In this document: positions 9,538 through 30,177 of the stretch, piece after piece
Position numbering within the stretch: position 1 is the stretch's first letter
Layout of the letters: each line of letters opens with the position of its first letter
NCBI GenBank assembly: GCA_028710695.1
Contig: JAQTTP010000005.1
Location: 30,981 to 62,980, forward strand
Source: Candidatus Iainarchaeum sp.
GTDB taxonomy: Archaea > Iainarchaeota > Iainarchaeia > Iainarchaeales > 0-14-0-20-30-16
DNA length: 32,000 bases
Direction: 5' to 3'
Translations under genes and position numbers: made by a program
Notes under the pieces: generated by a model
The model's input: only the letters and a program-made list of their open reading frames with translations
Told to the model about the DNA's origin: nothing
The model's database searches: none

Positions 9538-10055
9538 TTAAAAAACCGCCAGTACAGTTTAGCAAGTATCTTGGTAATTCTCCCGCCAGTTAAACTTTTT
9601 TTTGGGTTAGGAAAACTATTCATAAGTTCTTTAGGATTCCACTTAAATTTCCAATCGGCGGGCCCTGCTAAATCCAAGCCCAAATTTCCTTCTTCAATAC
9701 TTAACTTTAAAGAATTATATATTAAATAAGAAAACGCATAATATGGACTTTCAGAGTCTATAGATACTCCTTGTATAACCAAATAACCATCTTTAAATTT
9801 ATAAAGCGCAAAAGAGCAACAATATTTATTATTTATAGTATAAATTCCAAAATATCTTCTTTTAAACGGTAACTTAAAGGGGGGCATTAAAAGTCCTTTT
9901 CTTTTTCTATACTGCCTTAAGTTTTTTTTATGCTCATCAAAAATTATCTCTTTAAAGATCAATCCTTCACGAGTACCACGATTAATTTCATGCCTAATAT
10001 CTTTTGGCAAATTATTTAAATTCAACCAATCTTTTTCTAAAACTAATGTTTTCAT
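9534..10055 (-). CDS. Small FemAB/GNAT-like (Acetyltransf_6-like) acyl/aminoacyl-transferase domain protein, tentative
   Basis: 173 aa. IRHEINRGTREGLIFKEI and ...LAGPADWKFKWNPKE recall FemAB/BioF2-like acetyltransferase domains, but the protein is about half their usual length. SD GGTGAT 3 nt upstream of the ATG. Confidence 0.4.
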   Translation of the reverse strand: MKTLVLEKDWLNLNNLPKDIRHEINRGTREGLIFKEIIFDEHKKNLRQYRKRKGLLMPPFKLPFKRRYFGIYTINNKYCCSFALYKFKDGYLVIQGVSIDSESPYYAFSYLIYNSLKLSIEEGNLGLDLAGPADWKFKWNPKELMNSFPNPKKSLTGGRITKILAKLYWRFFK

Positions 10056-16824: not shown

Positions 16825-17814
16825 TCACTTAAAATTCTTTTTCAAACTCTCCAAAAGTATTATCCCATTCAAAGCATCATCTATGCTAACATATGGTTCT
16901 TCTGTGCCCGCAATACAACTTAAAAAGTTTTCAATTTCCATTAAAAGCGGTTCTTTCTTTTCAACAAGTATTTTTCTTTCTTCACCAACAGTAACGCCAG
17001 TTAATATTTGCTGATATTCTATATTCTCTTTATGTTTCCCATTTTCATAAAAGGTAATTTCCTGGGTAATATAATCTAGGCTCAACAGCCCTTTTTTTCC
17101 GCAAATATATAATTTTCTTATTTTTGTGGGAGATAAAATATCTGTAGATAAATTTATTACAATATTTTCTTTTGTCTTCATTAAAACTCTTATAATATCT
17201 GGATCTTTTTTATTTATGAAATTGTGTGTTTGTAAACAAGCATAACTTACACAATCACCCATTTTACCAAGTAAGTAATTTATTATTTCTAAATCGTGTA
17301 TTCCTAAGTCTGTTAGAACATCTACATCTACTACACCTGGTGGATATGGCCCTTGCCTCAAGATATTAATATAAAAAATTTTTCCTAACTCCCCCCTAAA
17401 AACAAGATCTATTACTTTTCTTACTGCTGGATTATATCTTTCAATCTGACCAACAACACAAGTAACTCCTGCTTTTTTAATAATATCTTTAATTTCTTCA
17501 GCTTCTTTAACAGATGGTGCTGCCGGTTTTTCTAGTAAAATATTAATTTTCTTTTGAGCCACCTTTTCCACTATTGCCTTATGCAACATAGTAGGAACAC
17601 ATATTGACACCCCATCTAACTGTTCGTTATTCAACATTTCATCCAAATCATAATACGCCTTACATTTGTATTTTTCCGAGAACTCATCACATTTTTTCTT
17701 ATTAGAATCACATATTGCAACTAGTTCAACATCTGGCCTTTCAAAATAAATTCTTGCATGGTTTTTTCCCATATTTCCAACACCAATTACTGCAATTTTT
17801 GGCACATTACTCAT
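16825..17814 (-). CDS. Gfo/Idh/MocA-family NAD-dependent oxidoreductase (WbpB-like)
   Basis: 329 aa. N-terminal KIAVIGVGNMGKNHARIY Rossmann motif and EKPAAPS motif. First gene of the operon. SD gtaGGTGAttttATG. Confidence 0.78.
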   Translation of the reverse strand: MSNVPKIAVIGVGNMGKNHARIYFERPDVELVAICDSNKKKCDEFSEKYKCKAYYDLDEMLNNEQLDGVSICVPTMLHKAIVEKVAQKKINILLEKPAAPSVKEAEEIKDIIKKAGVTCVVGQIERYNPAVRKVIDLVFRGELGKIFYINILRQGPYPPGVVDVDVLTDLGIHDLEIINYLLGKMGDCVSYACLQTHNFINKKDPDIIRVLMKTKENIVINLSTDILSPTKIRKLYICGKKGLLSLDYITQEITFYENGKHKENIEYQQILTGVTVGEERKILVEKKEPLLMEIENFLSCIAGTEEPYVSIDDALNGIILLESLKKNFK

Positions 17815-23395: not shown

Positions 23396-23416
23396 GTTTA
23401 TAATATAATTTCAATA

Positions 23417-23427
23417 TTTATAAAGGG
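23417..23427 (-). promoter_or_regulatory. TATA box (CCCTTTATAAA on minus strand) for the leaderless methyltransferase gene
   Basis: The box ends 21 nt before the ATG at 23395. No SD in between. Confidence 0.5.
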
Positions 23428-23672
23428 CTTGGTTTTATGTATAGAAAGACCAAAAAAAAGCACACGGAAACAAATCGATTTTTGCAAGTAGATGTCAAAC
23501 GGGAACAAACTTTCCCGTTAGAGTTGGCGCCATTTATGGCGCGGGTTATGGAAAATAAACAATTTGACTTTTTTTGTTCTTTTTTTATCCACCTTAGATT
23601 AATTAAAACTAGAATATCCCAAATCCTTTGGGTTTGTGGATATGCCCCCTTTTCTTTTTTGGTGAACTTATG

Positions 23673-23698
23673 CTTTTTTCTTTTGGAAAAGAAAAAAG
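23673..23698 (-). terminator. T-rich run plus 12+12 nt palindrome (CTTTTTTCTTTT GG AAAAGAAAAAAG) directly 3' of the candidate ncRNA
   Basis: Minus strand reads ...CCTGCCACTCTATTCTTTTTTCTTTTCC.... Oligo-T tracts act as archaeal terminators. The palindrome can form a long hairpin on either strand. Confidence 0.45.
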
Positions 23699-23706
23699 AA
23701 TAGAGT

Positions 23707-23899
23707 GGCAGGTAAAACGGTATACACAAGAGCATCTGGGACTACGGATATATACTCCCGGAATTGACCGCGCAAAAGACAGCAGATAAAATCTGCCCCA
23801 ACATACAGCAAAGCACATGGCATGAAGCCAGAACGCTTGTTTGCATATCCTCACTGCGCCGTTTGCAAATCTCACGAGGAGATTTAGAGGTTACCTACC
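23707..23899 (-). ncRNA. Candidate structured non-coding RNA of unassigned family (~193 nt)
   Basis: About 47% G+C by hand count (95/200 over 23701-23900) in an AT-rich locus. GGTAGGTAA (23899-23891) pairs with TTACCTGCC (23715-23707) to close the domain. Internal perfect hairpins at 23867-23885, 23782-23796 and 23818-23830. A TATA box lies 22 nt upstream and a T-run/palindrome immediately downstream. The ORFs called here look like noise. Confidence 0.45.
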
Positions 23900-23920
23900 G
23901 TATAAATATTATACAAACTG

Positions 23921-23940
23921 GTTTATAAAGGTTACTTTTT
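23921..23940 (-). promoter_or_regulatory. BRE/TATA-like promoter element (minus strand AAAAAGTAACCTTTATAAAC) for the candidate ncRNA
   Basis: TTTATAAA at 23922-23929. 22 nt separate the box from the first G of the terminal stem, which fits archaeal TATA-to-TSS spacing. The 20-mer is identical to 17928-17947. Confidence 0.5.
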
Positions 23941-27168: not shown

Positions 27169-27276
27169 TGGACTCAGCGGGAATTGAACCCGCAGCCTCG
27201 GCCTTACTCGCAGCCCCAGAATAAATTCTGGAGTATTGATGCAAGGGCCGCGCTCTCCCAGTTGAGCTATGAGCCC
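27169..27276 (-). tRNA. tRNA-Ala (anticodon UGC) with a 35 nt intron at the canonical 37/38 position
   Basis: Minus strand GGGCTCA TA GCTC AACTGGGA GAGC G CGGCC CTTGCA [intron] A GGCCG AGGCT GCGGG TTCAATT CCCGC TGAGTCC A. It has the G3:U70 alanine identity pair and discriminator A73. No encoded CCA. Confidence 0.9.
27205..27239 (-). other. tRNA-Ala intron (35 nt)
   Basis: Removing TCAATACTCCAGAATTTATTCTGGGGCTGCGAGTA restores a 7 nt anticodon loop CUUGCAA and the 5 bp anticodon stem CGGCC/GGCCG. The intron holds a CCAGAA/TTCTGG hairpin. A UGCG segment could pair with U34-A37. Confidence 0.75.
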
Positions 27277-29121: not shown

Positions 29122-30168
29122 CTATTCCGCCACAACTCTATTTCTTCCTTGTTCTTTTGCCTTATACAATCTCTCATCCGCCAAAGACACCAAAAGGTCA
29201 GGACTTGCTTCCTCAGCTTCATTAACACTAGCAACCCCTATACTTATAGTTACTTTACCTACCGAGAACTCAGAGTTATCTATTGCTGACCTAAGCCTCT
29301 CCCCAACAAGCTTTGCACCTTCTTTGTCACAGCTTAAGAGAACAATAAATTCTTCTCCACCCCAACGACAAAGGAAATCTTGGCCTCTTCCAGGTCTATT
29401 TCTTAAACTACTAAACAGAATCTTTGCTAATTTTCTAAGAACTATATCCCCGTTAAGGTGGCCATAGGTGTCATTGATGTTCTTGAAATGGTCTATATCT
29501 ATTATTAATAAGGAGAATACTGCTTTGGTTTTTTTGTAATCTTCTAACTTGTCATTAAAGTTTATTTCAAAAGAACGTCTAATCGAAACTTTAGTCAAAG
29601 GGTCCAACTGTTTGTCTATTACAGATGCAATAAACCGCCCAATAGATGCAAAATATATTGCAGAGATTAGAAGCATTGTCTTTATGTCTTCTCCATACTT
29701 TAATTTTTTTAGTAGAAGATTCTTGCCTTTTATTATTACAATTCCAATAACAGAATCATTGAATACAAGAGGAACCAATAGAGTGCTTTTATCAAACACC
29801 GAGTTAATTAGAACTTTAGTATATCTAAAATTATGTGGTACCATATTATAGGCATAAATTATATTCTTCTTGCCTTTTGGATAAAAATAGATTATTTCTT
29901 TGTCCTCAATTGATTTTAGAATATAATAATTCTCAGGAGTTATCTGATTCAAATCCATTTCTTCCAAATGGCTTGTAGTCTTAGTTCTATTCGCCAAACA
30001 TACAAGAGTATCTTTATCCAGCAAATAAACTCCAATATTTTCTACATCCTTCAGGGTATCCATTATTAATTCCGATACTCTGCTTAAGTTGGTTTCATAT
30101 TTAGAACTCAAGAGTGTACTCAGGGTATAAAGTTCTTTTGCAAGGGCCCACCCCCAAATTTTTTGCAT
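29122..30168 (-). CDS. GAF-like sensor / GGDEF-domain diguanylate cyclase (GGEEF active site, RxxD I-site)
   Basis: Numbering from the track ORF: DPLT (aa 192-195), IIDIDHFKNINDTYGHLNGD (225-244), RGQD (264-267) five residues before GGEEF (273-277; nt 29347-29361). The N-terminal ~160 aa end in LLVPLVFNDSVIGIVIIKG, which looks GAF-like. The track start at 30177 is GTG. The ATG at 30168 follows tAGGTGtcattaATG, which overlaps the transporter's stop. Confidence 0.85.
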   Translation of the reverse strand: MQKIWGWALAKELYTLSTLLSSKYETNLSRVSELIMDTLKDVENIGVYLLDKDTLVCLANRTKTTSHLEEMDLNQITPENYYILKSIEDKEIIYFYPKGKKNIIYAYNMVPHNFRYTKVLINSVFDKSTLLVPLVFNDSVIGIVIIKGKNLLLKKLKYGEDIKTMLLISAIYFASIGRFIASVIDKQLDPLTKVSIRRSFEINFNDKLEDYKKTKAVFSLLIIDIDHFKNINDTYGHLNGDIVLRKLAKILFSSLRNRPGRGQDFLCRWGGEEFIVLLSCDKEGAKLVGERLRSAIDNSEFSVGKVTISIGVASVNEAEEASPDLLVSLADERLYKAKEQGRNRVVAE

Positions 30169-30177
30169 TAATGACAC

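Follow-up and report, generated by a model that had tools for sequence, protein, structure and literature searches.

In a 32,000-nucleotide (nt) stretch of contig JAQTTP010000005.1 (hereafter the window), which derives from a Candidatus Iainarchaeum metagenome-assembled genome of the phylum Iainarchaeota (Diapherotrites) within the DPANN archaea, we identified an element on the minus strand at 23707-23899 that is probably an independently transcribed gene for a stable, structured non-coding RNA (ncRNA), belonging to a family that is undescribed in the libraries tested. Large and intricate RNAs with genes of their own are rare, and nearly all of the known examples, namely ribosomal RNA (rRNA), transfer RNA (tRNA), the RNAs of ribonuclease P (RNase P) and of the signal recognition particle (SRP), group I and group II introns and a handful of bacterial orphans, carry out fundamental jobs. 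The DPANN archaea are uncultivated organisms with reduced genomes, and their ncRNA has been little explored. The original prediction, made from the letters of the window alone, was of a stand-alone structured RNA gene equipped with a promoter and a terminator, and it is borne out by promoter spacing, by an oligo-T tract and by covariation among relatives. Several features of a stand-alone archaeal ncRNA are found here: a promoter comprising a transcription factor B recognition element (BRE) and a TATA box at about -26, oligo-T, and compensatory changes in the helices. Such an RNA would act in trans as a folded particle, and not as the leader of a neighbouring gene, and would bind a protein or a small ligand or be itself catalytic.

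Measured between the outer bases of its closing stem P1, the gene comprises 193 nt; its actual 3′ end is probably a few nucleotides beyond P1, at a run of T residues. The genome is AT-rich, and the element stands out as the GC-rich island that had been reported for it, with a G+C fraction of 0.46-0.47 over 23700-23899 against 0.24-0.35 in the flanks. When folds are compared with those of shuffled sequences, the minus strand has a z-score of -2.81 and the plus strand one of -1.17. The promoter (23921-23940, minus strand) consists of a purine-rich BRE-like stretch and the TATA box TTTATAAA, which lies at 23929-23922 as originally placed, 22 nt before P1 begins in the window copy. This distance is kept at 20-23 nt in the six short-form variants of the RNA (window, L001, L002, L012, L004 and L046). 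The exact box CCTTTATAAA has only four minus-strand copies in the 32 kb, which precede an open reading frame (ORF) at 16825-17814, a methyltransferase gene downstream of the RNA, the RNA gene itself and the 16S gene (about 230 nt ahead of 16S); because every minus-strand copy fronts a gene or the rRNA operon, we regard CCTTTATAAA as the standard promoter box of this organism. T-runs at about 24005-23965, between the 23S gene and the RNA candidate, set the latter apart from the rRNA operon.

An oligo-T tract (T6 C T4; 23687-23697, minus strand, with the T6 run at 23697-23692) begins 10 nt past P1 and would serve as the transcription terminator, oligo-T being an established signal for termination in archaea. 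An oligo-T tract is present in the variants for which the 3′ flank was read, with T-runs located 3′ of the RNA in L001, L002, L012, L022 and L046. A 12+12 nt palindrome at 23673-23698 (no strand given) had been predicted to form part of the terminator together with the T-run. Both are present at these positions, but the palindrome is not shared by relatives as a component of the gene: it lies within a segment of approximately 200 nt that is missing from L001, and hence the oligo-T tract, rather than the palindrome, is the conserved candidate signal. This segment (window 23503-23705, between the RNA and the methyltransferase promoter) contains further perfect hairpins in addition to the palindrome (CCCAAA-GGA-TTTGGG, GCGCCAT-AA-ATGGCGC and AACGGGAA..TTCCCGTT); its structure is not significant (fold z = -1.24) and no second copy of it is located elsewhere in the window. 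It may be an insertion, a small mobile element or a further small RNA.

Homologues of the RNA were sought by using the methyltransferase gene as an anchor and by one pattern scan of metagenome contigs, which together yielded 12 sequence variants (the window copy and 11 others) in genome and metagenome contigs. The anchor led to two GTDB genomes, L001 (methyltransferase protein 93% identical) and L002 (76%), both of which carry the same RNA between 23S and the methyltransferase gene; a position downstream of 23S is common to the window copy and its three nearest relatives. In L012 a 171-codon ORF with no Pfam or NCBIfam match (442-957) is located between the 3′ end of 23S and the RNA gene. More distant methyltransferase homologues (42-44% identical), one of them from 'Candidatus Diapherotrites archaeon CG08', are found on contigs where the RNA is directly upstream of the methyltransferase gene on the same strand, usually with a gene for a TrmB-family regulator on the other side, and no rRNA genes were called on these contigs. 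Many archaea carry 5S rRNA downstream of 23S, and the original prediction had placed the RNA in this slot; the position does not persist as a conserved context, since in the distant relatives the RNA lies between the TrmB-family and methyltransferase genes. The conserved neighbour is the methyltransferase gene, not 23S. A still more distant methyltransferase homologue (P0016) has a different context, in which the RNA was not found.

The pattern scan returned 23 loci. Nine are true copies, among which the variants L021 and L022 were new, and the remaining 14 are chance matches in coding DNA. A relaxed pattern scan of viral contigs gave three chance matches, in which the two strands of helix a (see below) are not complementary, and the RNA was not found there. 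Scored with a covariance model built on the 3′ domain, the true copies all reach 57-82 bits and the chance pattern matches no more than 24 bits; L049, which was outside the training set of the model, scores 70 bits, and the window holds a single copy of the RNA by this criterion. The family has so far been seen only in Iainarchaeota; DNA sequencing runs in which these organisms occur include SRR22315508, SRR22216446 and SRR11050168. Its members fall into size classes of about 135 nt (L046), about 155 nt (L004), about 193-200 nt (window, L001, L002, L012 and L021) and about 300 nt (L009, L013, L022, L042 and L049). In the last of these groups the sole good promoter is located 22 nt ahead of an extra 5′ domain of approximately 170 nt, which covaries separately. 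This domain (L009 9590-9760, L013 190-350, L022 939-1100, L042 133-300 and L049 about 580-745) starts with ACAGAAU and contains covarying hairpins (UAUAACUU/AAGUUAUA versus UACAAUCU/AGGUUGUA, and CUUUAAAUU/AAUUUAAAG versus CUUCUGA/UCAGGAG). It has no Rfam match and no counterpart in the window, and may be a separate RNA or part of a processed precursor. A terminal CAGA/UCUG stem considered for the long forms was discarded, as the 3′ UCUGCA belongs to a CUGCA..UGCAG hairpin.

The secondary structure is strongly patterned by covariation. Five core helices (t, Z, a, d and f) were scored on a MAFFT alignment of the natural sequences, in which 94.4% of cells are paired, compared with 33-49% when the partners are slid by 1-3 columns, and changes on both sides are observed in 19 of the 31 pairs. 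None of 500 shuffles reaches the observed value on any of five measures, two of which are robust to phylogeny, and the 3′ domain taken alone gives a picture of covariation that agrees with that of the full core. The helices are thus conserved and covarying in relatives, as the original prediction had anticipated for a genuine RNA. A G:U pair in helix Z is conserved in 11 of the 12 variants and many G:U pairs are present in f and t; these would become C.A mismatches on the opposite strand, which identifies the minus strand as the RNA strand. The strands of P1 and of a further helix, Hb, are too variable for alignment and were therefore tested by duplex energy, with cognate compared to permuted partners. 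P1 was predicted as a 9-bp pairing, with one G.U, between GGTAGGTAA (23899-23891) and TTACCTGCC (23715-23707), and this stem is upheld by compensatory changes. The RNA strands, GGUAGGUAA (23891-23899) and UUACCUGCC (23707-23715), both on the minus strand, are replaced in relatives by GUGGGUAA/UUAUCCAC, GUAGGGUAA/UUACCCUAC, GGUGGG/CCCACC and GUGUGG/CCACAC, and the cognate energy is -12.25 kcal/mol against -9.71±0.64 for permuted partners, with 2 of 5000 permutations as low. An internal GUGGGU was considered as an alternative partner of the 3′ ACCCA, but is present only in some variants, and L046 and L022 support the 5′-terminal partner. Hb pairs GCAAACGGCGCA (23855-23866, minus strand) with GCUGUCUUUUGC (23772-23783, minus strand) and closes domain I, joining the 12 nt ahead of a GUGA motif to the 12 nt past hairpin d. 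Its sequences are completely different between variants, with a cognate mean of -9.0 kcal/mol against -4.25±0.68 for permuted partners (0 of 5000 as low).

All further elements are likewise given on the minus strand. The GUGA linker (23851-23854), invariant in 12 of 12 variants, leads from Hb to helix t, in which GGAUAU (23845-23850) pairs with AUAUCC (23746-23751), the first six bases of what appears to be the loop of hairpin f. Helix t has 98.6% of its cells paired, with changes on both sides in five of its six pairs, and its versions include GGAUAU/AUAUCC, CAACUU/AAGUUG, CAAUUU/AAAUUG, CGACCU/AGGUUG and CGAUGU/ACAUCG, among others. A local GNRA hairpin in the distant forms (AGUUG-GUGA-CAACU) was rejected because it amounts to no more than 3 bp in L013 and L022 and does not occur in the window type; its bases are consistently engaged in Hb and t instead. 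The Z arm (23801-23844) follows, between the 5′ strands of t and a. Its base is of the form GCAN/NUGU (in the window GCAA, 23841-23844, with AUGU, 23801-23804) and encloses a variable insertion of 19-46 nt. It is 95.8% paired, with an A:U to G:C change in L012 and a fourth pair that may be U:A, U:G or C:G. Helix a pairs UGGGGC (23795-23800) with GUCCCA (23737-23742), again inside the f loop, and is 100% paired in all 12 variants through five versions (GGGGC/GUCCC, GAGAC/GUCUC, GGAAC/GUUCC, GAAGC/GCUUC and GGGAC/GUCUC); its consensus is UGRRRC, directly 5′ of the GAUUYUAUC hairpin, with GYYYCA as the last six bases of the loop. Hairpin d (AGAU UUU AUCU, 23784-23794) lies within this nearly invariant GAUUYUAUC. 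Helix f pairs CGGGAGUAU (23752-23760) with AUGCUCUUG (23727-23735), with 88.6% of cells paired and changes on both sides in 9 of 11 pairs, and its 16-nt loop (23736-23751) is made up of the 3′ strand of t (23746-23751), an invariant G-K-A (23743-23745), the 3′ strand of a (23737-23742) and a single G (23736).

Some elements are restricted to the close relatives. Hairpin Ha (AAAUCUC CUCGU GAGAUUU, 23867-23885) is an extra arm found in the window, L001, L002 (AAAUCC..GGGAUUU) and L012 (AAAUCCUA..UAGGAUUU). Helix e (GCGG, 23768-23771, with CCGU, 23717-23720) is also confined to close relatives, and the evidence for it is slight because its pairs barely vary (G:U to G:C only). The three perfect hairpins named in the original prediction are all present: AAATCTC/GAGATTT corresponds to Ha, and TGGC/GCCA to the tip of the variable Z arm (TGAC/GTCA in L002). 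In GCAGAT/ATCTGC, only AGAU/AUCU is conserved as a hairpin, and the outer G-C pairs are doubtful because a better-supported pseudoknot helix competes for the same bases. The predicted closed domain holds as regards its closing stem, but its interior is a triple-crossing pseudoknot instead of a simple multi-hairpin fold. In an earlier consensus fold from three sequences (RNAalifold), nine pairs were compensated, the conserved GUAGUCCCAG stayed unpaired in the 16-nt hairpin loop and GUGAGGAUAUGCA was paired with UGCUUUGCUGUAUG; this fold has been superseded by the t, Z and a pairings.

The order of elements is the same in the 12 variants: P1-Hb5′-GUGA-t5′-U-Z-a5′-d-Hb3′-f5′-t3′-GKA-a3′-G-f3′-P1. 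The 16-nt loop of the f hairpin pairs with the two strands that flank the Z arm to form helices t and a, so that t, a and f all cross one another. Two four-way junctions result, which have the 6-bp helices t and a in common: one joins f, t, Z and a through linkers whose lengths are 0, 1 (U), 0 and 1 (G) nt, and the other joins Hb, t, a and d with linkers GUGA, GKA, 0 and 0. Since the strands Z3′-a5′-d5′ and f5′-t3′ run continuously without linkers, the simplest three-dimensional reading would be of two coaxial stacks (Z/a/d and f/t/Hb) lying side by side, connected by two crossovers at an interval of 6 bp, roughly half a turn of A-form helix. All of the invariant positions (GUGA, GKA, one U, one G and GAUUYUAUC) are located at the junctions or in hairpin d, and they would form the functional site. 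We know of no natural precedent for a core built on a double four-way junction.

Comparison with known RNA families was made against Rfam 15, at gathering thresholds and at E ≤ 10 (the latter for the window copy and seven relatives), and no family was matched in the copies scanned, in keeping with the initial failure to fit the RNA to any known family; the confident Rfam hit that had been named as a sign of a known RNA was not obtained. No tRNA or transfer-messenger RNA cloverleaf was detected in the element by ARAGORN or the Rfam tRNA model. The RNA lacks terminal C/D boxes (RUGAUGA/CUGA) as well as the hairpin-pocket-ACA architecture of H/ACA guides, and the only hits to small nucleolar RNA were at chance level on the opposite strand of the L009 spacer. 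An rRNA-derived copy or repeat was discarded, as the element has no similarity to 16S, 23S or anything else in the window. Orphan structured RNAs that comparative genomics brought to light before a function was assigned to them, such as raiA, OLE, ROOL and GOLLD, and the GC-rich Hgc RNAs of AT-rich archaea resemble it in being GC-rich, conserved and covarying intergenic elements of complex fold and narrow range; however, they are represented in Rfam, where none matches, and all except Hgc are bacterial, whereas this RNA is archaeal. Pseudoknotted aptamers and ribozymes (SAM-II/V, ZTP, HDV-like and twister) share crossing helices and invariant junction purines, but the present RNA is larger, with its own promoter and terminator, a closing stem and a different helix order, and it matches none of them in Rfam. 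No description of such an RNA was found in the literature on RNase P, 5S, SRP, ncRNA, ribozymes or riboswitches of DPANN archaea and Iainarchaeota.

The RNA could conceivably be a strongly diverged universal RNA that Rfam models fail to recognise in fast-evolving DPANN lineages, with a minimal RNase P RNA as the best candidate, ahead of SRP RNA and an expanded 5S rRNA, but we consider this very unlikely. P4, formed by the conserved regions CR-I and CR-V, is the most conserved helix of RNase P. Like the minimal type T RNase P RNA of the Thermoproteaceae, the RNA described here is a stand-alone molecule of similar size (135-300 nt, within the type T range) with its 5′ and 3′ ends in a closing stem, and the order t5′-Z-a5′...t3′-GKA-a3′ inside P1 is reminiscent of the crossing order P2-P3-P4...P2′-J2/4-P4′ in the P2/P3/P4 topology of RNase P. 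Diapherotrites encode all five RNase P proteins (PMC4919917), so that some RNase P RNA must exist in these organisms. The likeness does not extend further: RNase P models gave no match in the copies scanned, CR-I (GAGGAAAGUCC) and CR-V (ACAGAA..GGCUUA) are absent from the aligned core, helix a, the topological equivalent of P4, varies freely through its five versions, and RNase P has nothing equivalent to the enclosing helices Hb and f. The long forms do begin with ACAGAAU, but without the following GGCUUA and without a complementary partner. SRP RNA gave no Rfam match either, and the helix 8 hairpin (GNAR tetraloop with an AGCA/GGA loop) is absent from the core; a helix-8-like GCAA...AGCU is confined to the 5′ extension of the long forms, where it occurs in L009 and is not conserved in L013, L022 and L042 (ACAA/AACU/AAUU). 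A resemblance of CCGUAGUCCCAG to the SRP Alu domain (7SL GCCUGUAGUCCCAGC) was also dismissed, since GUCCCA is a strand of the covarying helix a and becomes GCUUCA or GUUCCA. 5S rRNA, including the expanded form of Halococcus, is comparable in its location downstream of 23S (shared by the window copy and the three relatives nearest to it), its high G+C content and its terminal helix of about 9 bp, but is a pseudoknot-free three-way junction (helices I, II-III and IV-V; loops A-E), in contrast to the crossing t, a and f helices and different helix order of this RNA, which also lacks 5S motifs and, in more distant relatives, linkage to rRNA. The 5S model RF00001 gave no match at the gathering score or at E ≤ 10, no loop C/E-type sequences were seen by eye in the window copy, and other DPANN genomes have recognisable 5S genes (PMC8561730). 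A different objection, that instead of an RNA gene the region is a short gene for a protein, what remains of a gene, or GC-rich by chance, is hardly tenable. ORFs of 51, 54 and 88 codons do overlap the region, but the two longer overlapping ORFs tested on the minus strand, of 88 aa (23609-23875) and 105 aa (23418-23735), have no Pfam match, indels among the homologues (135 to 200 nt in length) are not multiples of three, and the pairwise compensatory substitutions refute this reading in practice.

Two further explanations concern the manner in which the RNA is expressed. The gene immediately downstream (23395-22748, minus strand) encodes a 215-aa class I S-adenosylmethionine-dependent methyltransferase, and the same-strand order of RNA followed by methyltransferase is present in 11 of the 12 variants, despite an upstream neighbour that may be 23S, an ORF without a known family, a TrmB-family gene or a gene for a HEAT-repeat protein. 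The RNA might accordingly be a cis-acting leader, either a riboswitch or a protein-binding element, that controls the methyltransferase gene by termination at the oligo-T tract, and ligand-binding aptamers typically possess a complex pseudoknotted core whose junction nucleotides are invariant. A promoter box 25-35 nt ahead of the ATG is typical of leaderless archaeal messenger RNAs. We nevertheless find this explanation improbable and treat the RNA as an independent gene, because the spacer between the RNA and the ATG (about 95-310 nt) contains one or more T-runs, because a conserved BRE/TATA-like box some 25-35 nt ahead of the methyltransferase ATG would suit a leaderless transcript, because the spacer in the window tolerates an insertion of 200 nt, and because L021 retains the RNA with no methyltransferase gene directly downstream. 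The closing stem at the 5′ and 3′ ends, followed by a putative terminator, also has the appearance of a complete RNA, and the gene product is an ordinary class I methyltransferase of the small-molecule type, which in L009 belongs to an N-glycosylation-type cluster, beside glycosyltransferase and STT3 genes. Having no RNA-methyltransferase signature, it was set aside as a clue to function. The chances are also slim that the RNA is a new self-processing ribozyme which excises itself from longer transcripts such as the forms with the 5′ extension. In L009, L013, L022, L042 and L049 the only good promoter is about 170 nt upstream of the core, which would therefore need to be released from a precursor of approximately 300 nt, and small ribozymes typically have cores with several pseudoknots and invariant purines at the junctions. 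On the other hand, no known self-cleaving family in Rfam was matched, the sequences offer no identifiable cleavage site, processing would be superfluous in the short forms (the window copy among them), whose promoter lies right at P1, and the long forms could simply be longer RNAs.

Several considerations nevertheless weigh against an independently transcribed ncRNA of a new family. Expression, the ends of the transcript and its stability are all inferred from DNA sequence, as the three-dimensional arrangement is from connectivity alone. The structure was derived from the same sequences on which it was scored, which favours it in the slid-partner control. Only 12 variants (about 9 of them clearly distinct) from one phylum are available, many found via the same neighbouring gene, and the rejection of RNase P, SRP and 5S was based on the candidate copies' own sequences. 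Finally, the methyltransferase gene persists as a neighbour in 11 of 12 variants although the gene on the upstream side differs, which could reflect a functional or regulatory tie, be it cis-regulation or a role of the RNA as substrate.

The promoter region of the methyltransferase gene (window 23396-23445) has a conserved element just 5′ of its TATA-like box, which reads ATACATAAAACCA in the window type and is represented by TATGTATAACCAAAAG in the distant one. The same element is found in L004 (about 9950-10000) and at the equivalent position in L009, L013, L022, L042 and L046, and a related ACATAA element lies ahead of the TATA box of the RNA. It may represent an extended BRE or the binding site of a regulator, a TrmB-family gene being often adjacent. 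Upstream of the RNA gene, the archaeal rRNA operon occupies the minus strand, with 16S at 28791-27311, an intron-containing tRNA at 27276-27169 and 23S at 27058-24124; an Rfam scan of the window detected no 5S in the operon. ARAGORN detected no tRNA in the window, and the span of the 16S-23S spacer tRNA is 108 nt in the window (27169-27276, minus strand), 165 nt in L001 (5956-6120) and 177 nt in L002 (5332-5508), from which it follows that this tRNA carries a long intron of variable length. A group I intron is present inside the 23S gene of L001 (8170-8430; Rfam 94.9 bits) and absent from that of the window, and the 23S span of L002 (5651-9315) is 3665 nt compared with 2935 nt in the window, pointing to insertions there as well. 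Directly upstream of the rRNA operon, the product of a gene at 29122-30177 (minus strand) is 351 aa long and includes a GGDEF diguanylate cyclase domain (E = 3e-40); to our knowledge, GGDEF proteins are uncommon among archaea. The window also encodes GatE (913-2751), a protein identical to NCBI MDD4983819.1 of a Candidatus Iainarchaeum metagenome-assembled genome, in accordance with the placement in Iainarchaeota.

Returning to the RNA, we tentatively suggest that it might represent a new catalytic or ligand-binding class of Iainarchaeota, perhaps of DPANN archaea more widely, in which the site is built by two interlocked four-way junctions in a natural 'double-crossover' fold, and which might serve a housekeeping role that other organisms assign to proteins or do without, possibly in connection with the adjacent methyltransferase. 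The DPANN archaea would thereby provide a new class of RNA that is open to experimental test, together with a natural fold where a single hairpin loop clamps two strands and so creates two four-way junctions half a helical turn apart, an arrangement of relevance to RNA structure and nanotechnology. The gene would also be a marker that annotation of Iainarchaeota genomes presently misses and, were the RNA to prove a ribozyme or a receptor, it would lengthen the list of natural RNA functions in archaea.

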